Shown one piece after another: positions 64 to 64,000 of a DNA stretch of 64,000 bases (positions are counted from its first letter, which is position 1; each line of letters begins with the position of its first letter). This DNA comes from a phage, in the NCBI GenBank assembly GCA_009015555.1, contig GCA_009015555.1_3613.1; one strand, written 5' to 3'. The notes beneath the pieces were generated by a model that saw only the letters and a program-made list of their open reading frames with translations, was not told where the DNA came from and ran no database searches. A program made the translations under genes and the position numbers.

Positions 64-71
64 AAATAAAG

Positions 72-101
72 TTGACGCCGGGAAGCGTTACGGGTTATAC
101 T
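72..101 (+). promoter_or_regulatory. sigma70-like promoter (TTGACG-18-TATACT)
   Basis: -35 TTGACG and -10 TATACT with 18-nt spacer upstream of first early ORFs. Confidence 0.5.
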
Positions 102-149: not shown

Positions 150-227
150 ATGAGCGTAATCTTCCTGGTATCTGTTTTCGTAGCTATCGCATCCACAACC
201 GCAATTTGCATCAAAATGGGCTGGTAA
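150..227 (+). CDS. small hydrophobic peptide (25 aa, MSVIFLVSVFVAIASTTAICIKMGW)
   Basis: ATG with upstream AAAGAGAG; stop abuts ATG of next ORF; below track size cut-off. Confidence 0.3.
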   Translation: MSVIFLVSVFVAIASTTAICIKMGW

Positions 228-4950: not shown

Positions 4951-6169
4951 ATAAGGTGTATTATGTTAAATGGGGTATGGTGGCGTGATGCACAGTCGGA
5001 CCGATGAGTCAATAAGAGAAGTGTAAAGATGGGCAAGATGGTAGACATTTTGTGGAGATGATCACGTAAAGCGAGGGCCTACCCGGTCCGATTGAGGAAA
5101 AGCTGAGAGGGGCTAAGTCATTGATTCATAAGGATATTTGGGGAAAATAACGAGGCCCCTCCCCACCCCCTGATCGCCATGCCTGGCAGCAATATCCATA
5201 CGCTGAGATATTTTTCTGGTTTCTGGGCAAGAAGGGCCACCCCTGATCGCGTTCTAAAAATTTTGGCGGGAGGGTAAAAACACCAAAAAGTCAGGGTAGG
5301 TGAGCCTCTCCGGCTCCCTTGATATTTGGGCAATGTGGGAATACAGACGGGTACGTCTCTGTGGGACGGTTACTACCCGGCGGGAGAGGGCCTCCCGGAC
5401 GGGGTGGTGCACCAGCCTGTGGCACATGAGTTATGCACAGGTCTGCCTCTTTAGGCGACAGATGTGGCTCTACAGGTTTACCACTGTGGGAAACAAAATT
5501 GTGGGAGGGAGATACAAAAATACCGCCCGAAGGCGGTTTATAGATGAATTATTTGTCCACCGTGGCTCTCATATATCTTTCGGACAGACTCCAGATTTTG
5601 GGAGTATGTGGTCTCTGTGGGGCCATCCCTTAAAGAGGATGTACCGCAGGTTAGGATTTTCTTACACTCAAGCTCCGCCTTTGTTGCCATTCCGGGTGGG
5701 AACCGATATATGAACAATGGTGTAACCGTGTGGTCTGGATTGTTCCTCTGTAGTTGCCTTATCCTAATCTTTGGTGTGTGGGTAACACCAAACTTGATGC
5801 TCCCCTCACCGACATCAAGTATGTAGGCACAGTCAGGCGACATCCTGTTGGATCTTCGGGACACGACCGCCATTTTATCACGGACTGACAAGTCAACACC
5901 TGGGTTTCTGACTAGGCCCGGCACCAATATATCCGGGCACCTTTTCCTCTCGATCGCTGCCATCTTTTGACTCTGTTCTGAGTACCACTCGTTACCCGAG
6001 ATTGTTTTGTATTTGTTCATATGCGGCCCGCCGTGGGTAATACGCGATGTGTTTGATATTGTGGTGGGCGAGGAACATAGGTCCGACTCTCCAGGTGTGT
6101 TTTCATAAGTGTTCCTCTTTGGCATGTTTGGAATATGTGGGGAGTATACCTATGTTTGGGGAAGGGGTC

Positions 6170-6192
6170 AAGGGCCTTTCGGCCCTTTTTAT
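6170..6192 (+). terminator. rho-independent terminator (plus-strand orientation)
   Basis: Hairpin GGGCC-TTTC-GGCCC followed by TTTTTATA; on the minus strand no U-run follows. Confidence 0.45.
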
Positions 6193-6473
6193 AGGATTTC
6201 AAATTCCTTGCGGAACAGGTCACGCTGGTTGTTGATGAACACCCAGGATGCTACAGGGTGGTCTTCGGAGAAGTCGTCCTTCTCTACAGTGACCACATCG
6301 TATGGTGGGTATGTGAGTGCCTCTACCCGACTGTGGAATCGGTAGACCTTACCGACCACAAACCCGTACTCATTTCCCCTAAGACACCGGGCGGTGCCTA
6401 CGGAAGGGACAGGGCAGTACGCTGGCTTGTATGCCTTGGCCTTCTTGGGGACATTCCACTTATGCGCCGTCAT
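6189..6473 (-). CDS. hypothetical protein (94 aa); last gene of the leftward block
   Basis: Track ORF; ATGA overlap with upstream small ORF. Confidence 0.5.
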   Translation of the reverse strand: MTAHKWNVPKKAKAYKPAYCPVPSVGTARCLRGNEYGFVVGKVYRFHSRVEALTYPPYDVVTVEKDDFSEDHPVASWVFINNQRDLFRKEFEIL

Positions 6474-6613
6474 TCGATCGTCCTCCGTGCATAGTCATAA
6501 CCTTGCTGGAAGAAATCCCACAGGTCCTCAACGTAGGACTTATTGGGGTACTCTGACGGGTCCCAGCCTGTGTGCTCCTCAAAGTATTCGTTGAACTGCT
6601 CGCGTAGTGTCAC
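6470..6613 (-). CDS. small ORF (47 aa, GTG start, RBS GGAGG)
   Basis: Fills gap between two track ORFs with overlapping stop/start on both sides. Confidence 0.3.
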   Translation of the reverse strand: MTLREQFNEYFEEHTGWDPSEYPNKSYVEDLWDFFQQGYDYARRTIE

Positions 6614-6828
6614 AGGTAATCCTCCAACTTTTTGAGCCAGAAACCAGACAGGTCCCGGCGTCGTCTATCCACTGGGCCGCTATCCATGATCTGGTAGATA
6701 ACGCCGTCTCTCTGGTCCTCGAAGATACGCACGTCACAGTCCACATACAGATACCGCAGTTCTTTCTGTGTGAAGCCATACGTCGGATACCAGTCAGAGA
6801 CCTTGACCTCCGGAGGGACCTTAATCAT
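6610..6828 (-). CDS. hypothetical protein (72 aa)
   Basis: Track ORF. Confidence 0.5.
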   Translation of the reverse strand: MIKVPPEVKVSDWYPTYGFTQKELRYLYVDCDVRIFEDQRDGVIYQIMDSGPVDRRRRDLSGFWLKKLEDYL

Positions 6829-7184
6829 GAGGATGCCTTAAACCCGGCGTTCCAGCCGAAGTCGTAATCAGTTTTGGGATCACCGTTCGCGCCCTTGTAG
6901 CCGCCCGGCGGGCACTCACCCTCAAAGTGCTTCAGTGCGTCCACATACCCGATGTACCAGTCCTTGGGCTTGTCCTCTTTCGAGTACCAAGATTCGCGGA
7001 ATACGAACTCTCTCCACAGGTCTTGGATGACGGCGACGTGCTCCCGCTGGCAGCGGCTATACAGGTTGTTCCTGCCGTTGTACAGCATGTCAAAGACACG
7101 CTGCTCCAGCGCTGCCTCTTCGTCACTGTTCGGGATAATCGGATTGTACCCGGCATACGGGCTTCGGTCTTCGGTATTTTCCAC
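6825..7184 (-). CDS. hypothetical protein (119 aa)
   Basis: Track ORF; 4-nt overlap with downstream ORF. Confidence 0.55.
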   Translation of the reverse strand: MENTEDRSPYAGYNPIIPNSDEEAALEQRVFDMLYNGRNNLYSRCQREHVAVIQDLWREFVFRESWYSKEDKPKDWYIGYVDALKHFEGECPPGGYKGANGDPKTDYDFGWNAGFKASS

Positions 7185-7217
7185 AGAAACTCCTTAGTTA
7201 TCAACAGGTTCGCCACT

Positions 7218-7503: not shown

Positions 7504-7659
7504 CTAACCTCTCTTCAGCCATTGATCACGATTTTCCCAGATGCGTTCTGCGGCTTGTTCAGCCCAGCGCCTGTCCAGGTAACGCTCGAAGTAATACCCC
7601 GCCACCCCTGCGGCGATGATCAGCAGGAACCCACCGACGATTACGATGCCGGGAGTCAT
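7504..7659 (-). CDS. small membrane protein (51 aa, MTPGIVIVGGFLLIIAAGVAGYYFERY...)
   Basis: ATG overlaps stop of upstream ORF (ATGA); stop abuts next start; single TM helix. Confidence 0.35.
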   Translation of the reverse strand: MTPGIVIVGGFLLIIAAGVAGYYFERYLDRRWAEQAAERIWENRDQWLKRG

Positions 7660-14019: not shown

Positions 14020-14310
14020 TTACCAGTCCAGTTTGTCAGCGCGGTGGCAGATTGCCAGTCGTGCAGCGCCGAGTTCGTCGCCTTTGCCCAGCAGTATATT
14101 ATGGTCCCGCTGGAACTTCAACTCTTTTATCACATATTCGAGATGCGGTTCGAGTAAACTTACCAGCACCTCGGCCTTTTCCGGATGCAGGGTCTCAAAG
14201 AGATCCCAGCCTGCATCGAAGTTCTCTTCATCGTCGGTGAAGAACTGCTCGCGTAGTTCCGGCGACATGATGTGGAACAAAAGGTGAGAGTATCGGGTAT
14301 TTTTGCTCAT
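14020..14310 (-). CDS. hypothetical protein (96 aa)
   Basis: Track ORF. Confidence 0.5.
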   Translation of the reverse strand: MSKNTRYSHLLFHIMSPELREQFFTDDEENFDAGWDLFETLHPEKAEVLVSLLEPHLEYVIKELKFQRDHNILLGKGDELGAARLAICHRADKLDW

Positions 14311-14483
14311 CAGCTACGACTCTTATGCAGAAGGCCGATGATGGCAGCACCCAAGACGCCGAAGCCCAGACCAATACCGAAGGCCCCTGTCAGCCCAGCG
14401 TTCGCCAGTACCGCTGCACAACCGCTAATCATGGACATGATGCCGATGATAAATGCTTTTTCGATGGTAGATACCTTTTTCAT
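14310..14483 (-). CDS. small glycine-zipper lipoprotein (57 aa; lipobox ISGC)
   Basis: ATG with RBS GAGGAGAG; stop overlaps next start; not in track (<60 aa). Confidence 0.45.
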   Translation of the reverse strand: MKKVSTIEKAFIIGIMSMISGCAAVLANAGLTGAFGIGLGFGVLGAAIIGLLHKSRS

Positions 14484-44591: not shown

Positions 44592-44620
44592 AAGAAAAAC
44601 CGCCCCGAAGGGCGGTTCTT
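44592..44620 (-). terminator. rho-independent terminator
   Basis: ACCGCCC-TTCG-GGGCGGT followed by TTTTTCTTT on minus strand. Confidence 0.55.
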
Positions 44621-44902
44621 TTAGTATTGATCTTCAGCGTAGCGGCGCTGATTTTCTGTGTTATCCACGTCCTTTAGCGTAAAGTTGTACTGCTCGCTAC
44701 GGACTGGGGCCGGGCGCGGTGTCGGGTCCAGATGGGCCAGCTTGACACCCGGCGGAATTTCATTGATGGTGAACGTGGTGTTGACCAGTTGTCCAGCCAG
44801 TTCATCCATACGCATGGAAACGAAGGCGGCTACGGAACGACCTTCACGGTCAGCCAGGAAACGCAGTTTTTCGAAGGTTGCATCGTTGAAGTTAATGTTC
44901 AT
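44621..44902 (-). CDS. ribbon-helix-helix-like DNA-binding protein (tentative)
   Basis: Track ORF; N-terminal beta-strand/helix pattern FEKLRFLADREGRSVAAFV. Confidence 0.45.
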   Translation of the reverse strand: MNINFNDATFEKLRFLADREGRSVAAFVSMRMDELAGQLVNTTFTINEIPPGVKLAHLDPTPRPAPVRSEQYNFTLKDVDNTENQRRYAEDQY

Positions 44903-44974: not shown

Positions 44975-45292
44975 TTACTCGCCGTCTTCTTCAGAAGCGC
45001 GGCCCATCAGGATGTCCAGTTCGTTAAGCTGCTCAATCTGGCCTTCCAGCGCCGCACGTTTCTTCTCAGCGGCGTCCTGCTTGTCGTACTCGCCGTTGAT
45101 CAGGGTTCGCAGGAATTTCGGATCGATGTTCAGATCTTCTTTGGTGATCGCCAGGATGCTTTTCAGGTCTTCTGCGGCGTCCTTCTGCTTACGAATCGCA
45201 TCAACACCTTCCTGAACGATATTTGCAAGGCGCTTACGTACAGCCGGGTCAGAAGGCAGGGTGTTCAGCAGTTCAACTTTTACTTTAGCCAT
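44975..45292 (-). CDS. hypothetical protein (105 aa)
   Basis: Track ORF. Confidence 0.55.
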   Translation of the reverse strand: MAKVKVELLNTLPSDPAVRKRLANIVQEGVDAIRKQKDAAEDLKSILAITKEDLNIDPKFLRTLINGEYDKQDAAEKKRAALEGQIEQLNELDILMGRASEEDGE

Positions 45293-45366
45293 TTGTGTTA
45301 CTCCTCTTCAGTGAATGTGTGAGCATTATGCTCGTTTTAACTCAGTGTGTCAACAACTTTTTGAAA

Positions 45367-45543
45367 CTATCGGACGAACATTCGACCTTGTTCAAAATAT
45401 CCATTCTTAATGCCCCGAGGGGCAGAAAGAGACTGTACCGCAGTAGCACCACAATTGCAAGTGGCAGTTTTGCGGTCTGCAATCTTTCGATTCTTGTCAA
45501 ATACTGCCCCGCACCCGGGGCATTTGTAAGAATACGTCGGCAT
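45367..45543 (-). CDS. FmdB-type zinc-ribbon protein (58 aa, MPTYSYKCPGCG...CNCG)
   Basis: Hand-translated; TAATG overlap with MazG stop; below track size cut-off. Confidence 0.5.
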   Translation of the reverse strand: MPTYSYKCPGCGAVFDKNRKIADRKTATCNCGATAVQSLSAPRGIKNGYFEQGRMFVR

Positions 45544-45905
45544 TACTTGTCTGTCTCCAGGATCTTACGCTCAGTAGCCAGATCACGGTTCTCCGCCAGG
45601 TCGTTTTCGAACTTACTCGGGTAACGAGCCTTCAGCTTGCGAATCACACGGTCCTGCTCTGCATCGAAGTCGGTGTTCAGTGCATCCATCGCCAGTGCCA
45701 GATACCACAGCAGGTCACCCATTTCCTCTTTCAGGTTGGTGGTGTCCAGAGGCTTGCCGTAGAACAGGGACTTCTTCAGGGCATCCTGGAACTCTGCCGC
45801 CTCGGTCACCAGACCCATTGAAGCGTGAATCAGGCGCGGGCCAACCGCGTCCAGATAAAAGTTGTGGGACTCGGTACGGATAGCATCTTTAATAAACTGC
45901 GACAT
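45543..45905 (-). CDS. mazG: MazG-like nucleotide pyrophosphohydrolase
   Basis: EEMGDLLWYLALA motif; start at ATG with RBS AAGGAG (track to 45944). Confidence 0.7.
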   Translation of the reverse strand: MSQFIKDAIRTESHNFYLDAVGPRLIHASMGLVTEAAEFQDALKKSLFYGKPLDTTNLKEEMGDLLWYLALAMDALNTDFDAEQDRVIRKLKARYPSKFENDLAENRDLATERKILETDK

Positions 45906-45959
45906 CAACTTCTCCTTTTCTGTTTCAGTGGGGCCATTATACATGACCCCGTTACACTG

Positions 45960-46400
45960 TCAACGACTTTTGTAAATCTTTTCTGCTTCTTCCCGGCGAC
46001 GTTCGTCACGGGCCTTCCTTTCGATGGCACACGCTTCCCGGTAGGCTTTCCGCCGGGCACCGCAGATACCTTCGACCAGACGCAGAACGCGATCCTGCTC
46101 CCAACGGTTCATCCAGTCGAGATCCCCGGAGACAACAGGGGAGCCGTGGAAGTTGTCACGGTAAAGGTACGTCTTCACCTTCCGTTCGTGGTCGAGGATC
46201 ACATAGTCCACAAAGTGGCTACAGCGGTCTCGGTCCGCTTGCGATGGGTTGTCGTACACTTCCAGCTTTTTGGCAGCGATCAATTCGAGAATCCGATTGA
46301 CCGGGGGCCGGGTCATGCGCCTTGGTGTCACGTACTTATCCCATGCCCATACGAGGACCAGAAGAATAAACAAACTTGTGCAGACCCAGAATCCCGTCAT
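45960..46400 (-). CDS. membrane-anchored hypothetical protein
   Basis: Track ORF; N-terminal TM helix. Confidence 0.55.
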   Translation of the reverse strand: MTGFWVCTSLFILLVLVWAWDKYVTPRRMTRPPVNRILELIAAKKLEVYDNPSQADRDRCSHFVDYVILDHERKVKTYLYRDNFHGSPVVSGDLDWMNRWEQDRVLRLVEGICGARRKAYREACAIERKARDERRREEAEKIYKSR

Positions 46401-54006: not shown

Positions 54007-54030
54007 AGCCGCCCTTCGGGGCGGTTTTTA
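54007..54030 (+). terminator. rho-independent terminator
   Basis: GCCGCCC-TTCG-GGGCGG followed by TTTTT. Confidence 0.6.
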
Positions 54031-54047
54031 ACTATCCGGAGGATGAA

Positions 54048-54206
54048 ATGAAACTGAATGAATCTCAGTATCTGGCGGCAAGAAAGGCGTTTGTGGAAAA
54101 TTCCGTATTCGATAATATCCGTATGTGGGTGGAAGATGGGCAAATGTCAGAGGATGAGCTTCGGGTGTTGATTGGAGAGATCTTCGCTCCCGTGGAGGTA
54201 GAATGA
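54048..54206 (+). CDS. small hypothetical protein (52 aa, MKLNESQYLAARKAF...)
   Basis: RBS GGAGG; ATGA overlap with next ORF; below track cut-off. Confidence 0.35.
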   Translation: MKLNESQYLAARKAFVENSVFDNIRMWVEDGQMSEDELRVLIGEIFAPVEVE

Positions 54207-55004: not shown

Positions 55005-55175
55005 ATGAGCGCCCGGACCTTTAATCACCTGCCGGGGGCGGATGACCCCCGGAACCACGAATATAAGGGATACATCTGCCTTTGTTTTGTGTGCGGAAAC
55101 AAATATCTTGGTCCAAAACGCTCGGTTATGTGCAATCTTTGTGCAAACGGTAAAAAGCCTGTTGACAAAGAGTAG
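55005..55175 (+). CDS. small zinc-ribbon protein (56 aa; CLCFVCG...CNLCANG)
   Basis: ATG with RBS GGGGAG; two CxxC pairs; below track cut-off. Confidence 0.4.
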   Translation: MSARTFNHLPGADDPRNHEYKGYICLCFVCGNKYLGPKRSVMCNLCANGKKPVDKE

Positions 55176-55477: not shown

Positions 55478-55553
55478 GCTGGATTAGCTCAGTAGGTAGA
55501 GCGCCTCACTTGTAATGAGGATGTCGCGGGTTCGATTCCTGCATCCAGCACCA
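55478..55553 (+). tRNA. tRNA-Thr (anticodon TGT)
   Basis: Cloverleaf by hand: acceptor GCTGGAT/ATCCAGC, loop CTTGTAA, T-loop GGTTCGATTCC, encoded CCA. Confidence 0.8.
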
Positions 55554-55559
55554 GATCAT

Positions 55560-55636
55560 GCAACGTTGCCGGAGTCTGGTAACGGCTCTCGCTGCAAACG
55601 AGATGAGCACTGGTTCGAATCCAGTACGTTGCTCCA
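55560..55636 (+). tRNA. tRNA-Cys (anticodon GCA)
   Basis: Acceptor GCAACGT/ACGTTGC, loop CTGCAAA, T-loop GGTTCGAATCC, CCA. Confidence 0.8.
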
Positions 55637-55637
55637 A

Positions 55638-55714
55638 GCGCCTTTGGTCCAATTGGTAGAGGCACTACATTCAAAATGTAGGGGTTCCCAGTTCGAATCT
55701 GGGAAGGCGCACCA
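55638..55714 (+). tRNA. tRNA with Leu anticodon CAA but short (5-nt) variable arm; identity uncertain
   Basis: Acceptor GCGCCTT/AAGGCGC, anticodon stem CTACA/TGTAG, loop TTCAAAA, T-arm CCCAG-TTCGAAT-CTGGG, A73, CCA. Confidence 0.55.
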
Positions 55715-55730
55715 AAATTTATGTAACCTA

Positions 55731-55759
55731 TTGACATAGTGTAATTATACTGCTAATAT
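55731..55759 (+). promoter_or_regulatory. sigma70-like promoter (TTGACA-17-TAATAT)
   Basis: Consensus -35, good -10, upstream of ORF 55786. Confidence 0.5.
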
Positions 55760-55785
55760 GGATACACTAATTCAATGGGGGCATT

Positions 55786-56160
55786 ATGAGCAAGGCTGCG
55801 ATTGTAACTCGTAAGCGTGGTCGCCCAAGCAAAGAAGAGAGCACAGCAATCGCCCTTGAAAAGGCAATGCTTGATCTCCGAGGCGAATTGGCCCGTCTGA
55901 CGCCGAAGGCCATTCATACTCTCGAAAACCTGCTCACAACAGGCACAGAGAAAGTGAAGGAAACCACGGCGAAGTATATCCTTGAGCAGGCGAAAGAGGT
56001 TAACAACCTCTATACTGAAGAGGATAACGAAGACGACGCAGCAGGCGGCACAACATCTGCCTCTTCTGAAACTCACGCTGGTTCTTCTGACGAGATGAAA
56101 AATGCCATCCCGTTGACAACCCAGATTCGTGAGTATAAAGCAGTAGGCGAAGATGATTAA
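55786..56160 (+). CDS. small basic/acidic protein with AT-hook-like RKRGRPSK motif
   Basis: Track ORF; own promoter and terminator inside tRNA cluster. Confidence 0.55.
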   Translation: MSKAAIVTRKRGRPSKEESTAIALEKAMLDLRGELARLTPKAIHTLENLLTTGTEKVKETTAKYILEQAKEVNNLYTEEDNEDDAAGGTTSASSETHAGSSDEMKNAIPLTTQIREYKAVGEDD

Positions 56161-56163
56161 CTG

Positions 56164-56190
56164 GAAGGCTCCCGAAGGAGCCTTTATTAG
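56164..56190 (+). terminator. rho-independent terminator
   Basis: AGGCTCC-CGAA-GGAGCCT then TTTATT. Confidence 0.5.
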
Positions 56191-56325
56191 AAGTTCTCTT
56201 TTGACGGGCACTTGTTAACGACCCGCAGAATGACGACGGTGTACAACGGCGTTTGATGGCGAGGAAGGTCTATAGGGATCAGCGCAGATCCTTGGATGTC
56301 AGGTGAGCCGTACAAAAGAGAATTT

Positions 56326-56413
56326 GGGGAGTTATTTCCGTAGAGGTAGCGGTGCAGACTGTAAATCTGTTGTCATTGCGACTCGGGTGGTTCGACTCCA
56401 TCACTCCCCACCA
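56326..56413 (+). tRNA. tRNA-Tyr (anticodon GTA), long variable arm
   Basis: Loop CTGTAAA, variable arm GTCATTGCGACTC, T-loop GGTTCGACTCC, CCA. Confidence 0.8.
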
Positions 56414-56419
56414 AATTAT

Positions 56420-56514
56420 AGTAGGATGGCTGAGTGGCTTAAAGCAGCATCTTGGAAAGGTGTCGGATCAGGTAACCCCTGGTCCCGGGAGTTCAAATCT
56501 CCCTCCTACTGCCA
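56420..56514 (+). tRNA. tRNA-Ser (anticodon GGA), type II
   Basis: Acceptor AGTAGGA/TCCTACT, D-loop GAGTGGCTTAA, loop TTGGAAA, long variable arm, CCA. Confidence 0.75.
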
Positions 56515-56518
56515 GACC

Positions 56519-56595
56519 GGATCGTTAGCTCAATTGGTTAGAGCAAGGGACTTTTAATCCCGAGGTTCGGGGTTCGAGTCCCTGACGGTCCACCA
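56519..56595 (+). tRNA. tRNA-Lys (anticodon TTT)
   Basis: Acceptor GGATCGT/ACGGTCC, loop CTTTTAA, T-loop GGTTCGAGTCC, CCA. Confidence 0.8.
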
Positions 56596-56760
56596 GAAAG
56601 GAAGAGGGTCCAAGCTGGTAATGCGAGAGGCGAGTCCTCAGACCAAAGCCCAGATGGAGGCCACCCTAAAGTCGTCCAACCGAAGGTCCCTGATTGAGTA
56701 ATACTTCCCCGCTTGTCGGGTACAGTTCTCAGTCACACCGGAAGGGGCGCACCCTATAAT

Positions 56761-56836
56761 TGACGGTGAGCATATAAGGACATGCGGGGGCCTGTTAAGT
56801 CCAGGATAGCTGGTTCGAATCCAGTACCGTCAGCCA
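56761..56836 (+). tRNA. tRNA-Asn (anticodon GTT)
   Basis: Acceptor TGACGGT/ACCGTCA, loop CTGTTAA, T-loop GGTTCGAATCC, CCA. Confidence 0.75.
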
Positions 56837-56945
56837 ATTTGGTTCCGACAAGGTGACGGCGCACCCCGGAGCGACGCTGAAAGATGCAGGCCGACGAACA
56901 CATACGTGTACTTAATCAATAGTCATTGCGATGGCTATTCGTTAA

Positions 56946-57023
56946 GTCCTGGTAGACAAACTGGATAAAGTCACCACCCTTTCAAGGTGGGGTTTGAGGG
57001 TTCGATCCCCTCTCAGGACGCCA
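56946..57023 (+). tRNA. tRNA-Glu (anticodon TTC)
   Basis: Anticodon stem CCACC/GGTGG, loop CTTTCAA, T-loop GGTTCGATCCC, CCA. Confidence 0.75.
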
Positions 57024-57117
57024 ATCTTTTAGGTCGGTAGATTAATGAGCAAAGGCCGCTCGCTGGATTCCAACCCCAGTTCAAGGCGTTCGATTCGTCA
57101 CCTTCCTGCCAAATTCA

Positions 57118-57193
57118 GGTCCTATGGTATTAGCGGTAAACATACTCGCCTGTCACGCGAGAGTCACGGGTTCGAATCCCGTTAGGACCGCCA
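57118..57193 (+). tRNA. tRNA-Asp (anticodon GTC)
   Basis: Acceptor GGTCCTA/TAGGACC, loop CTGTCAC, T-loop GGTTCGAATCC, CCA. Confidence 0.8.
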
Positions 57194-57200
57194 CTTCAAA

Positions 57201-57275
57201 TGGGGATTAGCTCAGGGGTAGAGCGCACAACTGATAATTGTGAGGTCGGTGGTTCGAAACCACCATCCCCAACCA
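57201..57275 (+). tRNA. tRNA-Ile (anticodon GAT)
   Basis: Acceptor TGGGGAT/ATCCCCA, loop CTGATAA, T-loop GGTTCGAAACC, CCA. Confidence 0.8.
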
Positions 57276-57345
57276 AACAGCCCCTCCCGGGATTGGACCG
57301 GGTTAACGGCAATCGCACACTGAGGCGTCTTCCGGGGGAACAATA

Positions 57346-57422
<77 letters not shown>

Positions 57423-57428
57423 AATTAT

Positions 57429-57503
57429 TGCGAGGTAGTTCAGCGGTAGAACAGGGGTTTCATACGCCTCATGTCGGCAGTTCGATTCTGCCCTTCGCAA
57501 CCA
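57429..57503 (+). tRNA. tRNA-Met (anticodon CAT; initiator/elongator/Ile-lysidine not resolved)
   Basis: Acceptor TGCGAGG/CTTCGCA, loop TTCATAC, T-loop AGTTCGATTCT, CCA. Confidence 0.7.
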
Positions 57504-57509
57504 AATCAT

Positions 57510-57587
57510 GCTCCAGTAGCCCAATTGGTAGAGGCACTTGATTTAGGATCATGTCAGCGATGAGTTCGAATCTCTCCTGGAGTACCA
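57510..57587 (+). tRNA. tRNA-like gene with Leu anticodon TAG, short variable arm and weak T-stem; identity uncertain
   Basis: Acceptor GCTCCAG/CTGGAGT, D-arm CCAATTGGTAGAGG shared with 55638 tRNA, loop TTTAGGA, A73, CCA. Confidence 0.45.
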
Positions 57588-57593
57588 CATAAA

Positions 57594-57667
57594 GCGGGCA
57601 TGGTATAGTGGTTGTGCCTTAGCCTTCCAAGCTAATGAGTCCGGTTCGATCCCGGATGTCCGCTCCA
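57594..57667 (+). tRNA. tRNA-Gly (anticodon TCC)
   Basis: Acceptor GCGGGCA/TGTCCGC, stem TTAGC/GCTAA, loop CTTCCAA, T-loop GGTTCGATCCC, CCA. Confidence 0.8.
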
Positions 57668-57740
57668 ATTCACGGTGAGTCACTGCCGTTAAGTGTGAAG
57701 TTAAAAATGCCCGTGGTGATCGGGTTATCTCACCCAGTGT

Positions 57741-57816
57741 AGGGGATTAGTTTAATTGGTAAAACATCGGGTTTTGATCCCGACATCGCGAGGTTCGAAT
57801 CCTCCATCCCCCGCCA
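57741..57816 (+). tRNA. tRNA-Gln (anticodon TTG)
   Basis: Stem TCGGG/CCCGA, loop TTTTGAT, T-loop GGTTCGAATCC, CCA; 1-72 is A-C mismatch. Confidence 0.7.
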
Positions 57817-57898
57817 CATTAATGCTCATTAGCTCTTGTCAGTGGAACTCGAACCCTTAGAGCAGGCGACACAGACGTGTGTTTTAGTGAGCATCAAT

Positions 57899-57974
57899 GT
57901 GGCCTTAATTCAGCAGGTAGAATCCCCGGTTGTGAACCGGGCAGTCGTGGGTTCAAGTCCCACAGGTCACCCCA
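57899..57974 (+). tRNA. tRNA-His (anticodon GTG)
   Basis: Acceptor GTGGCCT/AGGTCAC, stem CCCGG/CCGGG, loop TTGTGAA, C73, CCA. Confidence 0.8.
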
Positions 57975-57978
57975 ATCT

Positions 57979-58071
57979 GGAAGATAGGGCGTAGTGGTAC
58001 GCACCCGGATTTGAACCCCGGCCCGCTGTGGCGACCCCACGGTGATAGTTCGACTCTATTATCTTCCGCCA
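57979..58071 (+). tRNA. tRNA-Ser (anticodon TGA), type II
   Basis: Collinear with bacterial tRNA-Ser(UGA): acceptor GGAAGAT, loop TTTGAAC, long variable arm, ...TTCC-G-CCA end. Confidence 0.7.
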
Positions 58072-58092
58072 CCCCTGATCATAAGGCAAACT

Positions 58093-58785
58093 ATGTTAGA
58101 AATGTTAACAGTGGGTAAATACACCCCTAGTCCTATAATTTCTAGCCCTATGGATGCTTATTTTGAGGGCGAGAGGAATAATAAATACGGCACTGTTGAG
58201 TGGGTTGTTCCTCAAGGCGTCACCTCAATCTGCTGTGTAGTGATAGGCGCAGGATCTTCTGGCAGAAGCGGCGGTCTTTCTTGGAGAAACAACATTCCAG
58301 TTACACCTGGTGAAAAACTTAAAATGCAGGTTAACTCCACAGCCAGCGCCCTCTTGAGAGAGACAACTATCCTTTGTGCTGCCCAGTGTGGCGGCAACGG
58401 AGGAAAAACATATAACTCTGTGAACGACGGTGGAGGCAATGCTGGACAATCACCACATGGTAGAGGTGGTGCTGGCGGCTACACCGGGAATGGTGGTGAT
58501 GGGCATACGTTCACAGGTGGTCCAGGACCAGGGTCCCCAGGTTCAGGTGGCGGCGGCGGCGGAGGCGCAGTTGTGTATCTGAACGGATCATTGACACCAA
58601 CTGTCTGCGGCGGAGTCGGCATGTATGGACAGGGGTCGAATGGTGGCGCTGATAACAGCGCCGGATATCCAGGCTCCGGCGGTTCTGGAACAAGATACGG
58701 AAGAGCAGTCGATGGTTATGGTGTTGTCAGGGTTGTGTGGGGAAATTATTCATTCCCAACAAATGCCCCGAGACCGAAATCCTGA
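58093..58785 (+). CDS. glycine-rich repeat protein (GGxGG tracts, poly-Gly run) embedded in tRNA cluster
   Basis: Track ORF 58042..58785; start at ATG after AAGG just downstream of tRNA-Ser. Confidence 0.5.
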   Translation: MLEMLTVGKYTPSPIISSPMDAYFEGERNNKYGTVEWVVPQGVTSICCVVIGAGSSGRSGGLSWRNNIPVTPGEKLKMQVNSTASALLRETTILCAAQCGGNGGKTYNSVNDGGGNAGQSPHGRGGAGGYTGNGGDGHTFTGGPGPGSPGSGGGGGGGAVVYLNGSLTPTVCGGVGMYGQGSNGGADNSAGYPGSGGSGTRYGRAVDGYGVVRVVWGNYSFPTNAPRPKS

Positions 58786-58856
58786 TAGGGATGGTCCCTA
58801 CGAGGATCGTCTTTTGCTCAGTGGTACTCAGCATTTACTTAGTATTCAAACAATAT

Positions 58857-58943
58857 AGAAGAGTGGCGAAATAGGTAGCCGCACCGGACTGCTAATCCGG
58901 GGTCCTTCGGGGCCTGAGAGTTCAAGTCTCTCCTCTTCTGCCA
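58857..58943 (+). tRNA. tRNA-Ser (anticodon GCT), type II
   Basis: Acceptor AGAAGAG/CTCTTCT, stem CCGGA/TCCGG, loop CTGCTAA, long variable arm, CCA. Confidence 0.75.
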
Positions 58944-58948
58944 AGCAT

Positions 58949-59024
58949 GGAACTGTAGCTCAGTTGGTAGAGCGGTTGCCTGAAGAGCAGCGCGTCAGCG
59001 GTTCAAATCCGTTCAGTTCCACCA
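58949..59024 (+). tRNA. tRNA-Phe (anticodon GAA)
   Basis: Acceptor GGAACTG/CAGTTCC, D-arm TAGCTCAGTTGGTAGAGC, loop CTGAAGA, T-loop GGTTCAAATCC, CCA. Confidence 0.8.
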
Positions 59025-59921: not shown

Positions 59922-61409
59922 ATGTCCGCTACATTCGCACCCGCGAGTCGTAAGCAACAGATGGTTCTCGAATCTAAAGCACAGATCCTCATCATGGGTG
60001 GCGCAGCAGGCTCCGGCAAATCTTACCTGCTCCAGTTGATGCCCCTGTTGATCATTGATGATCCTCGTACAGCTTGCATCATGTTCCGCCGTACAGTGCC
60101 TCAGATTCGTGGTCAGGGCGGTCTGTTCGACAAAGCGAAAGATATTTACAACCAGCTTCCTCCGGTCGTCAAGCCTAAGTTCAAAGAGAACGAGATGATT
60201 GCGACCTTCCCGAACGGGGCGACGGTGAAGTGGCAGTCCATGCAGCACATCAACGATAAGTATAACATCCAGGGTCTGGAATTTACTTTCATTGGTGTGG
60301 ATGAAGGGACCCAGTTTGACTGGGAACAGCTTGAGTACATGATGTCGCGTTTGCGTTCAAACTCAAAGTACCCTTCCCGTATGGTCGTATCTTGTAACCC
60401 CGACCCGGATCATAAGCTCCGGGAAATGATTGACTGGTATCTGGATGAGAATGGTCTGCCGATCCCTGAACGTGACGGAGTTATCCGTTGGTTTGTTCGT
60501 GTGGATGACAACTACATCTGGGGTTCCACCAAGGAAGAACTGAAGCAACGCTTCGGTAAGAAATGTAAGCCTGTTTCATTCAGCTTCATCTCTTCCACCA
60601 TTTACGACAACCCTCCGATGCTGATCAACAACCCGGAGTACCTTGCCCAGTTGGAAGGTCTGAACGATGTTGACCGCGCCCGCCTGCTTCACGGCAACTG
60701 GGACGCTCGCCCGGAAGGTGCAAACTATTTCAAACGTGAGTTCCTGAAAGAGGTGGATTGCCTCCCGATGAACGTCACGAAAGTCCGTGCTTACGATAAG
60801 GCAGGTACGGAGCGATCCACAGCAAACAAAACCCCTGACTTTACGGCGGGGATTGGTGTGGCCCGCGATGACGACGGATTTTATTACCTGTATGGAAACT
60901 ACCATGACGATTTCATCGACAATGGTGAGTGGTCCACTGGCACCGCCGGGCGCTTCTGTAAGAAAGCTGGCGAACGTGACGTGATTATCACGAAGCAGGC
61001 AATGCTGGACGGTGACGACACAATCGTCATTTTCTCCGTTGACCCCGGTCAGGCAGGTATCTCCGAGTTCACCACGTCATCCCGTGATCTTATCTCGAAA
61101 GGGTATATGGTAGAGAAAGACCCGACACCCGGTAACAAATCGAAGCTAACCCGCTTCTCCCCGTTTGCCCAGTTGGCACAGAACGGATTTGTCCGGATCG
61201 TTAAGAAGTCATTCCCTCTGGACACGTACAACGCATTGATGAAAGAACTTGAGTCTTTCAACGGTGAACGTTCTACCGGGTCCCGTAAGGATGACTGGGC
61301 GGATGCCGTGGCATCAGGAATTAACTTCCTGGAGAAGACCGAGGTCGTCCGCGCCGTCGCTATTCCTCGACCAAATGCCCCTACTCTGTACGCCTCACGT
61401 CGTTATTAA
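59922..61409 (+). CDS. terminase large subunit
   Basis: Walker A GGAAGSGKS, Walker B FIGVDEG, C-terminal nuclease region; RBS CAGGAGAG (track ORF from 59817). Confidence 0.9.
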   Translation: MSATFAPASRKQQMVLESKAQILIMGGAAGSGKSYLLQLMPLLIIDDPRTACIMFRRTVPQIRGQGGLFDKAKDIYNQLPPVVKPKFKENEMIATFPNGATVKWQSMQHINDKYNIQGLEFTFIGVDEGTQFDWEQLEYMMSRLRSNSKYPSRMVVSCNPDPDHKLREMIDWYLDENGLPIPERDGVIRWFVRVDDNYIWGSTKEELKQRFGKKCKPVSFSFISSTIYDNPPMLINNPEYLAQLEGLNDVDRARLLHGNWDARPEGANYFKREFLKEVDCLPMNVTKVRAYDKAGTERSTANKTPDFTAGIGVARDDDGFYYLYGNYHDDFIDNGEWSTGTAGRFCKKAGERDVIITKQAMLDGDDTIVIFSVDPGQAGISEFTTSSRDLISKGYMVEKDPTPGNKSKLTRFSPFAQLAQNGFVRIVKKSFPLDTYNALMKELESFNGERSTGSRKDDWADAVASGINFLEKTEVVRAVAIPRPNAPTLYASRRY

Positions 61410-61427
61410 TATCACAGGGGATATGCC

Positions 61428-62951
61428 GTGTCAAGAAAACGTAATCGTAACCGCTCCGTTAAAGTGGCTAAGGCCACCAGCGAGCAACTTAACGTATCCC
61501 GTATGCGTATGAGTGAGCAAGGGACCTTTGCTCTGGCTAAGGTTCAGGTTGACTCCGAACGTATGAAGGCCGAAGAGATTCGCTGGCCCAACCTGATTGG
61601 TACAGTCGAGTCAATGAAGCAGGACGCCACCGTTGCGACGGGCCTTGACATGCTGTACACTTTCGTGGAGAAGGCGTTCAAGGATTTCAAGGTAATCCCT
61701 GGCGAATCTGAGGAGTCCAAAAAGGCTGCTAAGTTTGTTGAGTATTGCCTGAAGAACATGGAAGGTCAAACCCTTCGTCAGTTCGCCCGTGACGCCGCAA
61801 CATTCAACGAGTATGGCCTGTCAGTTGTGGAGAAAGTCTACACTCAGGTTACTGTTGGGGAATACATCGGCAAGTACAAGGTAAAGAACCTTGCTTTCCG
61901 ACCGCAGGCGTCCTTGAGCCGGACAAACCCGATTGTTTACAATGAGGACGGCTCTGCCATCATCGGTATTAAACAATCCCTATCTGCGTTCCAGAACTAC
62001 ACAGCCAGTGAGATTGGTGTTGGTGGCGTATCCACCCGCATGAGTGATGTCATTATCCCAATCAATCGTGTCATGCTGATGAACACGGGAGGCTCTTCAT
62101 CTCAGGCTCTCGGTGTCTCTCCTCTGGTAGGGTGCTACCGAGCGTGGCGTGAAAAGATTCTGATTGAGAACCTTGAGGTTGTTGGCGCAACCAAGGACAT
62201 GGGTGGTGTGATCGAATTGAAGATCCCTTCCCAGATCCTGAACAAAGCTGCAATGGACCAGTCTTCTCCTGAAGCAGAAATGGTCCGTGGCCTGATGTCT
62301 GACGCTGCAAATGCCCACTCCGGTGAGCAGTCATTCTTCATGCTGCCATCTGATACAAAGGATAACGCCCCTCAGTATTCAATGACCCTCAAGGGCATCG
62401 ACGGGATGGGTAAGCAGTACAGCACCGCACAGTTGATCAGTGACCGTAAGAAGTCAATCCTTGATCGTCTGGGCGCTGGCTTCATCAACGTGGGTAACGA
62501 CAAAGGCGGTTCTTACAACCTGTCTGAGTCCAAGCAGACTATCCACACCCAGTTTGTTCAACGTGTAAACGAGATCATTCTGGAAGCTCTGAACGAAAAC
62601 CTGCTGCCACAATTGCTGGCTCTGAACGATATGCGCCTCCCGGAGACGGAGATGCCATACGTCAAGGCTGGGGAAATCGTGGACGTGGACATGGAAGGTT
62701 TCTCCAAGGCGATTCAGCGTATTGGTGCCGTTGGATACCTGCCGAAAACTCCGAAGGTTATCAACCGTGTACTGGAAGTTCTGGGCATTGATGAGAAGAT
62801 TGAGGAAGACATTTCTCAGGAAGAACTCATGAAGCTGTTGGGTGAAGATACGAGCCGCGCCGGAGACGGCATGACGAAAGGATCTTCTGGTAACGGTACT
62901 GGCAAAATCTCTTCCACAAGAGATAATTCAGCGGCTAATTTGGATAATTAA
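61428..62951 (+). CDS. portal protein (by size and position after terminase), GTG start
   Basis: 507-aa ORF immediately downstream of terminase; RBS AGGGGA. Confidence 0.6.
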   Translation: MSRKRNRNRSVKVAKATSEQLNVSRMRMSEQGTFALAKVQVDSERMKAEEIRWPNLIGTVESMKQDATVATGLDMLYTFVEKAFKDFKVIPGESEESKKAAKFVEYCLKNMEGQTLRQFARDAATFNEYGLSVVEKVYTQVTVGEYIGKYKVKNLAFRPQASLSRTNPIVYNEDGSAIIGIKQSLSAFQNYTASEIGVGGVSTRMSDVIIPINRVMLMNTGGSSSQALGVSPLVGCYRAWREKILIENLEVVGATKDMGGVIELKIPSQILNKAAMDQSSPEAEMVRGLMSDAANAHSGEQSFFMLPSDTKDNAPQYSMTLKGIDGMGKQYSTAQLISDRKKSILDRLGAGFINVGNDKGGSYNLSESKQTIHTQFVQRVNEIILEALNENLLPQLLALNDMRLPETEMPYVKAGEIVDVDMEGFSKAIQRIGAVGYLPKTPKVINRVLEVLGIDEKIEEDISQEELMKLLGEDTSRAGDGMTKGSSGNGTGKISSTRDNSAANLDN

Positions 62952-63020
62952 TCCGGTCGTGAAAACAACCTGTTGCAAAACAGTCAGTTCAGTGCTAAAA
63001 TAATTATCACGGGAGCAATG

Positions 63021-63596
63021 ATGGAAAACATTACCCTTTCCGACCTTCCTTCACAAACTAATCTGACTCGAATCCAAAAGAGTCGGTTTGTGAAAAAGGC
63101 CAACGACCTGTTGAAGCAGGGCTTTAATAAAGCTGCTGCCGTTAACGGGGCCGTTGGCTCCGTCCTCGTCCAGAAAGCCGCTGGTGAAGAAGAGATGATT
63201 TCTTATGAGATCATCTACGAACCTGACACCCCGGACCTTCACGGACAGTGGATGTCGAAAGAGACCTTGGTAAAGGCTCAACAGGATTTCAAAAAGGCTC
63301 AGGAACTCGGTGCTGTCACGGAGAACCTGTATCACCTTTTCGACACCGACTCTTGGAAAATCGTTGACCACTGGATTCAACCAGAGTTCGACGTTAATGT
63401 AGCGCAAACTGGCGAAGTAATCAAGGCCGGATCTTGGGTTGCAAAAGTTCAGTACACCCCTGAGACATGGGAGTTGAAGAAGGCCGGACTTATCGGTGGC
63501 CTGTCACTTCAGTGCGGCGGAATGCTGAACGAAGAGACGAATGAACTTTCCGAACTGGACTTCAGTATTTCACTCGAAGAAGAGGAAGCCAAATGA
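63021..63596 (+). CDS. hypothetical head-morphogenesis-region protein
   Basis: Track ORF 62973..63596; start at ATG spaced 5 nt after GGGAG. Confidence 0.45.
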   Translation: MENITLSDLPSQTNLTRIQKSRFVKKANDLLKQGFNKAAAVNGAVGSVLVQKAAGEEEMISYEIIYEPDTPDLHGQWMSKETLVKAQQDFKKAQELGAVTENLYHLFDTDSWKIVDHWIQPEFDVNVAQTGEVIKAGSWVAKVQYTPETWELKKAGLIGGLSLQCGGMLNEETNELSELDFSISLEEEEAK

Positions 63597-64000
63597 TCAA
63601 GACGTGGATCGAGAAAGGTCGCCAGATTAAATCTCGCGGCATTGCTCTCACTCACCGAGATCAGGGCTACAGCGCGAATAACCGCCACGTCAGCCTCCTG
63701 ACCAAATCCGAAGTTGACCCTGAGAAACTCACGGTTGACATCATCAAATCTCTCGAACAGGTCCAACTCACCATTTCTATGGAAGAGTACCTGCGCCGCT
63801 TCTTCCACCTGTGGAGTGGAGATGCAGAGTTGCTCACCAAAGTGCTGGGCATGAAGACCGAGTTCGAACAGTCCATCGAAGACAACCCGCCGGATGATGA
63901 TTCCTGGGAAGCAGAATGGAATGAGCGCCACCAAGAATACTTGGAACAGAAGCTCTCCTCTGTCACCCTTATCAAGAAAGCGAAGGCTGGCGATGAACTG
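63593..64000 (+). CDS. hypothetical protein (partial, continues beyond window end)
   Basis: ATG overlapping upstream stop (ATGA), RBS GAAGAGGAAG; open to end of window. Confidence 0.4.
   Translation, partial: MIKTWIEKGRQIKSRGIALTHRDQGYSANNRHVSLLTKSEVDPEKLTVDIIKSLEQVQLTISMEEYLRRFFHLWSGDAELLTKVLGMKTEFEQSIEDNPPDDDSWEAEWNERHQEYLEQKLSSVTLIKKAKAGDEL

Follow-up and report, generated by a model that had tools for sequence, protein, structure and literature searches.

Does a short open reading frame (ORF) on the minus strand of a phage genome, 58 amino acids (aa) in length, encode a protein, and if so, what would that protein do? The frame lies at positions 45367-45543 of a 64,000-nucleotide (nt) stretch of phage DNA (contig GCA_009015555.1_3613.1 of NCBI GenBank assembly GCA_009015555.1), which we refer to in its full length as the window. 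An initial annotation, made from the letters of the window alone, had listed this frame with six other short ORFs as unannotated small genes, had described its product as an FmdB-type zinc ribbon, and had named regulators and anti-defence effectors as frequent roles for such proteins. All seven ORFs are complete from start to stop with the peptides it quoted; their strands, which it did not give, are minus for four and plus for three. We conclude that the frame at 45367-45543 is almost certainly a real gene, and that its product, MPTYSYKCPGCGAVFDKNRKIADRKTATCNCGATAVQSLSAPRGIKNGYFEQGRMFVR, is very probably a homolog, over its full length, of Gp39.2 (NwgI) of T4-like phages.

Within 5 kb around the focal ORF, the six reading frames hold 68 ORFs of at least 30 aa; an open frame alone is therefore not beyond chance, and so we tested conservation. 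The comparison set consisted of the homologous regions of phages CR3, CR8, PBES02, DU_PP_I, POP15, KaOmega, CR9, W70 and SSBI34, together with IMG/VR contigs, phiTE included. The focal ORF is intact in 12 Vequintavirinae genomes, and the ratio of non-synonymous to synonymous substitution rates (dN/dS; Nei-Gojobori method) is 0.06-0.38 against 10 relatives. Relative to phiTE, the differences number 13, 7 and 32 at the first, second and third codon positions, respectively, and synonymous change exceeds non-synonymous change per site with a one-sided Fisher p of 3e-11 for the best comparator. The focal gene is under purifying selection. A 109-aa ORF on the opposite strand (45295-45624) covers the focal ORF and was considered as the true gene of this locus; because the sites that vary fall at third positions in that frame on the minus strand but at first codon positions in the plus-strand ORF, the latter is excluded. 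The presence of many spurious ORFs of similar length nearby, this one among them, would fit a chance ORF, or the conserved signal of a non-coding or antisense element. However, the third-position bias falls in the minus-strand frame, dN/dS is ~0.1, curated hidden Markov models (HMMs) match the protein, and more than 1000 phage records encode homologs. This explanation is effectively refuted by the dN/dS values together with the curated HMM and hhalign results given below, and we assign it next to no chance of being correct.

The sequence around the start codon fits the proper ribosome-binding sites and operon packing that had been claimed for all seven ORFs. The focal ATG has one base in common with the TAA stop codon of the upstream MazG gene (TAATG) and is preceded by a Shine-Dalgarno-like GGAGA, and the other six ORFs all have Shine-Dalgarno-like motifs, with 4-nt stop/start overlaps in three. 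The description of these genes as unannotated mostly did not hold, since six of the seven carry an annotation in one or more public relatives; the exception is the 25-aa ORF at 150-227, present in six relatives and annotated in none. With 100% identity, the focal protein matches both CR3 gp244 (YP_006383259.1 / AFH21409.1), which is 'hypothetical' in GenBank and an 'FmdB-like transcriptional regulator' in RefSeq, and a protein of DU_PP_I; the gene is also annotated in PBES02, CR9, DU_PP_I, POP15, KaOmega and W70. It is intact yet carries no annotation in CR8 (L038 10471-10644) and SSBI34 (L044 2501-2674), and in SSBI34 a GTG start is apparently used. As public annotations already cover all of these genes but one, and the family has a characterised member, the focal finding brings little that was not known.

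The assignment to the FmdB family was borne out by both curated models. The focal protein scores 41.0 bits against PF09723 (Zn_ribbon_8; curated cut-off 34.4) and, over residues 1-42, 48.9 bits against TIGR02605 ('FmdB family zinc ribbon protein', CxxC_CxxC_SSSS; curated cut-off 31.3), and by these matches it belongs to the FmdB/Zn_ribbon_8 family. It also matches phrog_1076, of category 'transcription regulation'. Only zinc-ribbon families were significant in Pfam and NCBIfam, with no DNA-binding or RNA polymerase (RNAP)-binding domain among the matches. C8, C11, C29 and C31 are invariant in 16 clade members, the second pair being spaced CxC rather than CxxC; the protein is predicted to bind zinc. 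In an AlphaFold2 (AF2) model built with a 36-sequence alignment, residues 1-40 form a four-stranded ribbon with a predicted local distance difference test score (pLDDT) of ~80. The conserved C-terminal tail, SAPRGIKNGYFEQGRMFVR, has a pLDDT of ~55 and is probably flexible. A sequence search of the PDB with the family profile found no solved homolog, only spurious matches to C2H2 zinc-finger repeats ('YKCPECGKSF'), and a Foldseek search of the PDB with the AF2 model found nothing significant (E values of at least 0.09).

The relationship to Gp39.2 emerges from several comparisons. A tblastn search of 50,697 phage records with the focal protein found a homolog in 309, and the best matches outside the Vequintavirinae are the '39.2' genes of the T4-like phages RB49, Phi1, JSE, RB16 and RB43. 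Pairwise BLASTP with RB49 gp39.2 gives 47% identity over 53 aa (E 4e-15), and hhalign of a profile of 16 Vequintavirinae-type sequences against the T4-like Gp39.2 profile gives a probability of 99.6% and an E value of 6.9e-25 over 52 of 58 columns. In the reverse direction, tblastn with a frameshift-corrected T4 Gp39.2 returns a Certrevirus match at 39% identity across 54 aa, with a database-wide E value of 1e-4. The similarity extends to the C-terminus, where the motif [ST]AP[RK]x[IV]xxG[YF][YF][DE] reads SAPRGIKNGYFE in the window, TAPRGINGGYYD in RB49 and SAPKHVNGGFYD in T4-like proteins.

The product of T4 gene 39.2, a peptide of 58 aa, moves GroEL to an open conformation able to bind GroES or phage co-chaperonins, and a 39.2 deletion mutant does not grow on specific groEL mutant hosts (PMC5153855, PMC4396842; both cite Ang & Georgopoulos 2012, Genetics 190:989). 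The T4 RefSeq coding sequence for 39.2 (NC_000866.4; L005 3640-3860, minus strand) is only 45 aa long, as opposed to the 58 aa of the literature. Removing one T from GCTTCC produces a 58-aa frame ending in ...SAPKHGNNGFYDLLKG, a tail with the family motif, and the full-length form is encoded by 978 of 1001 phage records. The RefSeq version is thus probably a reference frameshift or a strain mutation. The same RefSeq entry is named 'transcriptional regulator' despite the GroEL data. The RB43 and RB49 homologs are reportedly active as well. Searches of the literature on FmdB/zinc ribbon/phage, Gp39.2 and NwgI found nothing linking Vequintavirinae proteins to NwgI, and two Certrevirus genome papers, one of them PMC7344957, do not mention the focal gene.

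We consider chaperonin modulation the most likely function of the focal protein because its only characterised homolog, T4 Gp39.2/NwgI, modulates host GroEL; for the focal gene, the evidence does not favour the role of regulator or anti-defence effector put forward in the initial annotation. The gene would be transcribed with MazG from a consensus sigma-70 promoter, presumably early, with its translation coupled to that of MazG by the TAATG overlap. The product would be a scaffold, stabilised by zinc at the N-terminal four-cysteine ribbon, that presents the conserved tail. By homology with T4 Gp39.2, it would bind host GroEL and move it to the open, GroES-accepting conformation, and the result would be better folding of phage proteins in hosts or conditions in which GroEL/GroES is limiting. 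We favour this explanation as a whole, an early Gp39.2-type gene that modulates host GroEL, at somewhat better than even chances, and we judge that the focal protein may or may not, in about equal measure, have the same GroEL/GroES-modulating function as T4 Gp39.2.

Several observations weigh against it. The transfer of function crosses phage families, with identity over this short 58-aa protein of only 38-47%, and GroEL modulation is established for the T4-like proteins only, not for those of the Vequintavirinae. The second knuckle is CPxC in the T4-like proteins but CxC throughout the Vequintavirinae clade. The genomic context is also unlike the T4 early region, with gene 39, goF and dexA as neighbours there and MazG and a ligase in the window; this mismatch reflects Straboviridae synteny rather than a property of the protein, and so bears only weakly on membership of the Gp39.2 family. 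Lastly, a tblastn search of all phages with the E. coli GroES sequence had no Certrevirus among the matches listed for a GroES-like co-chaperonin, an uninformative result given that a co-chaperonin of the T4 gp31 type is undetectable in this way.

Other targets for the protein can be envisaged. The RefSeq product name and the category of phrog_1076 suggest a transcription factor or RNAP-binding protein, in which the zinc ribbon would dock on RNAP or sigma and the tail would touch a second site. Certreviruses lack an RNAP of their own and must redirect the host enzyme (PMC7344957), and the top Foldseek matches are to RbpA of actinobacteria, a small protein that binds sigma and consists of a barrel and a tail. 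However, these matches are non-significant (E ~0.1, 17-23% identity, template modelling score ~0.48, root-mean-square deviation 5-9 Å), and T4 39.2 bears the same RefSeq name even though experiments assign it to GroEL. Moreover, the FmdB name is inherited from an uncharacterised Methylophilus ORF, and no TIGR02605/PF09723 member is known to bind DNA or RNAP. We consider a role in transcription unlikely. We think it similarly improbable that the protein is directed at a different host target, for instance to counter defences or to aid host takeover, with the GroEL activity of T4 Gp39.2 being lineage-specific. Roles of this kind are frequent among small early proteins of phages (PMC11323111), and both the zinc knuckle and the context have diverged from those of the T4-like proteins, but conservation with the T4-like proteins is full-length and includes the tail, the part most likely to mediate binding. 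In addition, every member of the Vequintavirinae examined has the gene, whereas accessory genes against host defences are usually distributed patchily, and there are no defence-related neighbours in the annotations examined, the PADLOC library not having been searched.

The TAATG overlap invites a further explanation, namely that the zinc ribbon pairs with the adjacent MazG or serves as its regulatory subunit, made in a fixed ratio to it by translational coupling. A zinc-ribbon gene directly follows an 'NTP pyrophosphohydrolase' gene not only in Certrevirus but also in rV5-like/SSBI34 phages and in Jiaodavirus (Straboviridae). The 'pyrophosphohydrolases' of the three lineages, however, fall in different PHROGs, and no similarity among them could be detected: when the window MazG is compared with the 'MazG-like' protein of Jiaodavirus, BLASTP gives an E value of 3.2 and hhalign a probability of 0.1%, the window MazG does not align with T4 GoF, and Pfam MazG matches neither the Jiaodavirus protein nor GoF. 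The genes upstream of 39.2 in T4 and RB49 are goF and dexA, and tight packing with stop/start overlaps is usual throughout the window genome. A role as MazG partner is therefore very unlikely in our view. We regard as a long shot, too, the broader proposal that a Gp39.2-type zinc ribbon and an upstream pyrophosphohydrolase form a functional two-gene module, recurrent in Certrevirus, rV5-like/Seunavirus-like phages and Jiaodavirus, with the enzyme diverged beyond recognition. If it were true, the small protein would serve the hydrolysis of nucleotides or alarmones, or connect it to chaperonin control, rather than act as a stand-alone GroEL modulator. Another long shot is that the tail (SAPRGI..G) mimics the GroES mobile loop (KSAGGIVLTG), to which it bears a resemblance of 4-5 residues.

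Table 1 Features of the window discussed in the text
Feature	Position	Strand	Basis
Focal gene, 58-aa FmdB-family zinc-ribbon protein	45367..45543	-	ORF and peptide, HMMs, dN/dS, hhalign
Shine-Dalgarno-like GGAGA, 10 nt upstream of focal ATG, within 3' end of MazG gene	45554..45558	-	read from sequence
MazG-like NTP pyrophosphohydrolase gene, 120 aa, = CR3 gp245	45543..45905	-	Pfam MazG 33.8 bits vs cut-off 22; phrog_229
Perfect sigma-70 consensus promoter TTGACA-16-TATAAT	45936..45963	-	consensus scan, 12/12 matches
Second sigma-70-like promoter TTGACA-17-CATAAT, 14 nt past focal stop codon	45325..45353	-	consensus scan
Genes of next unit, started by second promoter	44975-45292, 44621-44902	-	promoter/terminator layout
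Terminator after the two next-unit genes	44595-44620	-	promoter/terminator layout
Conserved sigma-70-like promoter GTTGAC-N19-TATACT upstream of 25-aa ORF	70..101	+	matches Certrevirus early-promoter consensus (PMC7344957)
25-aa single-helix hydrophobic peptide gene, first ORF after conserved promoter, ends 1 nt before next ATG	150..227	+	ORF, conservation
GTG-initiated 47-aa acidic protein, strong GGAGGA Shine-Dalgarno, GTGA overlap with upstream gene	6470..6613	-	ORF, conservation
51-aa protein, N-terminal transmembrane helix	7504..7659	-	Kyte-Doolittle 2.27
57-aa hydrophobic protein, lipoprotein-type signal (Cys22) and GxxxG, = CR3 gp184	14310..14483	-	phrog_17188 E 4.8e-34, function unknown
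52-aa acidic protein, immediately following nicotinamide phosphoribosyltransferase gene	54048..54206	+	ORF, conservation
56-aa Cys-rich protein (CxCxxC...CxxC), just upstream of tRNA cluster	55005..55175	+	ORF; phrog_8931 E 5.6e-30, function unknown

The gene order in the window is DNA ligase, membrane protein, MazG, zinc ribbon, and the promoters and terminator that delimit this region are listed in Table 1. A concentration of sigma-70-like early promoters among short ORFs is a described feature of Certrevirus (PMC7344957). The start of MazG at 45905 has an AAGGAG Shine-Dalgarno sequence. The start of the longest ORF (ATG 45944) was rejected, as it falls inside the -10 region of the promoter, and 45905 is therefore the correct start. 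From this layout the focal gene appears to be the second of two genes, after MazG, on a single early transcript. The pyrophosphohydrolase genes that the zinc-ribbon genes directly follow in the three lineages lie at window 45543-45905, L043 1760-2497, L044 1697-2500 and L052 2179-2514. A homologous MazG/zinc-ribbon cassette common to the T4-like phages was considered and rejected as demonstrated homology on the lack of detectable similarity between the enzymes, which leaves only the adjacency.

The proposed check of reading-frame conservation and dN/dS across relatives came out in favour of all seven ORFs. Each is intact in 2-12 diverged relatives, with substitutions mostly at third codon positions and Nei-Gojobori dN/dS of 0.06-0.47, and the synonymous excess per site is significant for every one, with one-sided Fisher p values for the best comparator ranging from 3e-11 (focal) to 0.002 (25-aa ORF). 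All seven are genuine protein-coding genes. The six besides the focal gene comprise three of membrane or lipoprotein type, two acidic and one Cys-rich, with no known function in any.

The Cys-rich protein encoded at 55005-55175 had been called a zinc ribbon. Five cysteines (C25, C27, C30, C43 and C46) are indeed invariant, but the AF2 model, which is shallow and of low confidence (core pLDDT ~75), shows a beta-hairpin plus helix, suggesting a treble-clef-like fold rather than a classical ribbon. This gene is intact in 10 relatives (dN/dS 0.07-0.12) and restricted to Certrevirus-like genomes; it is annotated in PBES02, KaOmega, CR9, CR8 and DU_PP_I, and not in CR3 (L004 5763-5930) or POP15. Directly downstream of it, 18 tRNA genes are clustered at 55478-59024 on the plus strand, in a layout that differs from that of CR3 by several indels; tRNA-Tyr was not found by ARAGORN in the window. 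For the ORF at 14310-14483, described earlier as a glycine-zipper lipoprotein, the lipobox is present: a PS51257-like regular expression, which asks for a signal peptide with a lipobox and a Cys at position 15-35, matches at Cys22, with ISGC in the window and IGGC in relatives. It also has two overlapping GxxxG motifs, but no glycine-zipper family of Pfam or NCBIfam matches at E ≤ 1. Its dN/dS is 0.22-0.37, and it is annotated in CR3 and four other relatives. The small glycine-zipper lipoproteins OsmB and SlyB are similar in that a lipoprotein-type signal precedes a hydrophobic, Gly-rich segment containing GxxxG, and differ in the family match that is missing here; the product could equally be a two-helix membrane hairpin.

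The hydrophobic segments of the two peptides described as small transmembrane proteins (150-227 and 7504-7659) are present as described. Across six genomes, the invariant positions of the 25-aa ORF at 150-227 number 20, 24 and 11 of 27 at the three codon positions, dN/dS is 0.15-0.47, the Fisher p of 0.002 comes from the comparison with CR9, and there is no match in PHROGs or Pfam. The ORF at 7504-7659 is carried by a 153-nt segment that CR3 lacks, the genes on either side overlapping one another directly in CR3; it is annotated as PBES02 ADU18_0004 and POP15_191 and unannotated in CR8, with dN/dS of 0.06-0.17. The GTG start reported for the 47-aa ORF (6470-6613) is likewise present. This protein is 71% identical to the annotated POP15_189 and 59% identical to unannotated ORFs in CR3 and CR9 (Fisher p 6e-7), and it belongs to a small acidic family, matching only the C-terminal third of phrog_34067 (positions 66-103 of 107). 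A 'DLW' motif region is common to it and a 119-aa ORF (6825-7184), which suggests that the two are paralogs. The 52-aa protein (54048-54206) is 98% identical to the annotated POP15_291 and 62% identical to an unannotated CR9 ORF (Fisher p 3e-9). Its ORF occupies the slot of DNA methylase 2 (window 54029-54202), a gene of ~720 nt in CR3 and CR8, as it also does in POP15 and CR9, and the methylase content of the window phage therefore differs from that of CR3.

The window is a segment of a Certrevirus (Vequintavirinae) genome, and by sequence similarity the phage is related to CR3, CR8, PBES02, DU_PP_I and POP15. A 1.6-kb query around the focal ORF is 99.8% identical to Cronobacter phage CR3 and 80-98% identical to 24 other Certrevirus records. 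Over its whole length the window is a mosaic relative of CR3, with 93-100% identity interrupted by insertions and replacements, and no record in the phage collection covers its variable parts. Positions 5456-6610 and 6829-7195 have no megablast match in CR3; the ORFs on these segments encode 195 aa (5538-6125), 94 aa (6189-6473) and the 119 aa mentioned above. Positions 59922-64000 have no match to part 88160-149273 of the CR3 record, and CR3 would end ~2.9 kb before the end of the window. The source genome is therefore probably circularly permuted relative to CR3, or different at this end.

Hundreds of phage records, T4 RefSeq included, carry the name 'FmdB-like transcriptional regulator', although the only experiments on the family point to GroEL. 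Automated functional summaries are therefore misled by a name at odds with the only experimental evidence. Small genes are also inconsistently annotated even among near-identical genomes: CR8 and SSBI34 miss the focal gene, CR3 and POP15 the Cys-rich one, and every relative that carries it the 25-aa gene. A comparative re-annotation of Certrevirus would repay the small effort it takes. Should the Vequintavirinae proteins also act on GroEL, two unrelated large-myovirus families of Enterobacterales would have in common the tuning of a chaperonin by a zinc ribbon of 58 aa.

Among known systems, RbpA has a small beta-rich core followed by a flexible tail, but with non-significant matches and no sequence relationship this is a resemblance only. 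With the FmdB family (PF09723; TIGR02605), the focal protein has in common a domain that starts at Met1, paired Cys knuckles (the second spaced CxC) and coverage of residues 1-42. Bacterial members usually have a greater length and end in low-complexity tails, whereas the focal tail is a short Gp39.2-type motif, and the family has no established function, so that membership says little about mechanism. The T4-like Gp39.2 proteins of T4, RB49, RB43, RB16, JSE and Phi1 share with it a length of 57-60 aa, the MPxYxYxC zinc-ribbon start, a KI[RK]KI[SA][ED]R core, the same C-terminal motif and an early-type genomic setting. Closest of all is CR3 gp244, from a genome of which the window as a whole is a mosaic relative (94-99.8% identity, with indels) and not a copy; gp244 lies in the same place after MazG with the same one-base overlap and has no difference at the protein level.

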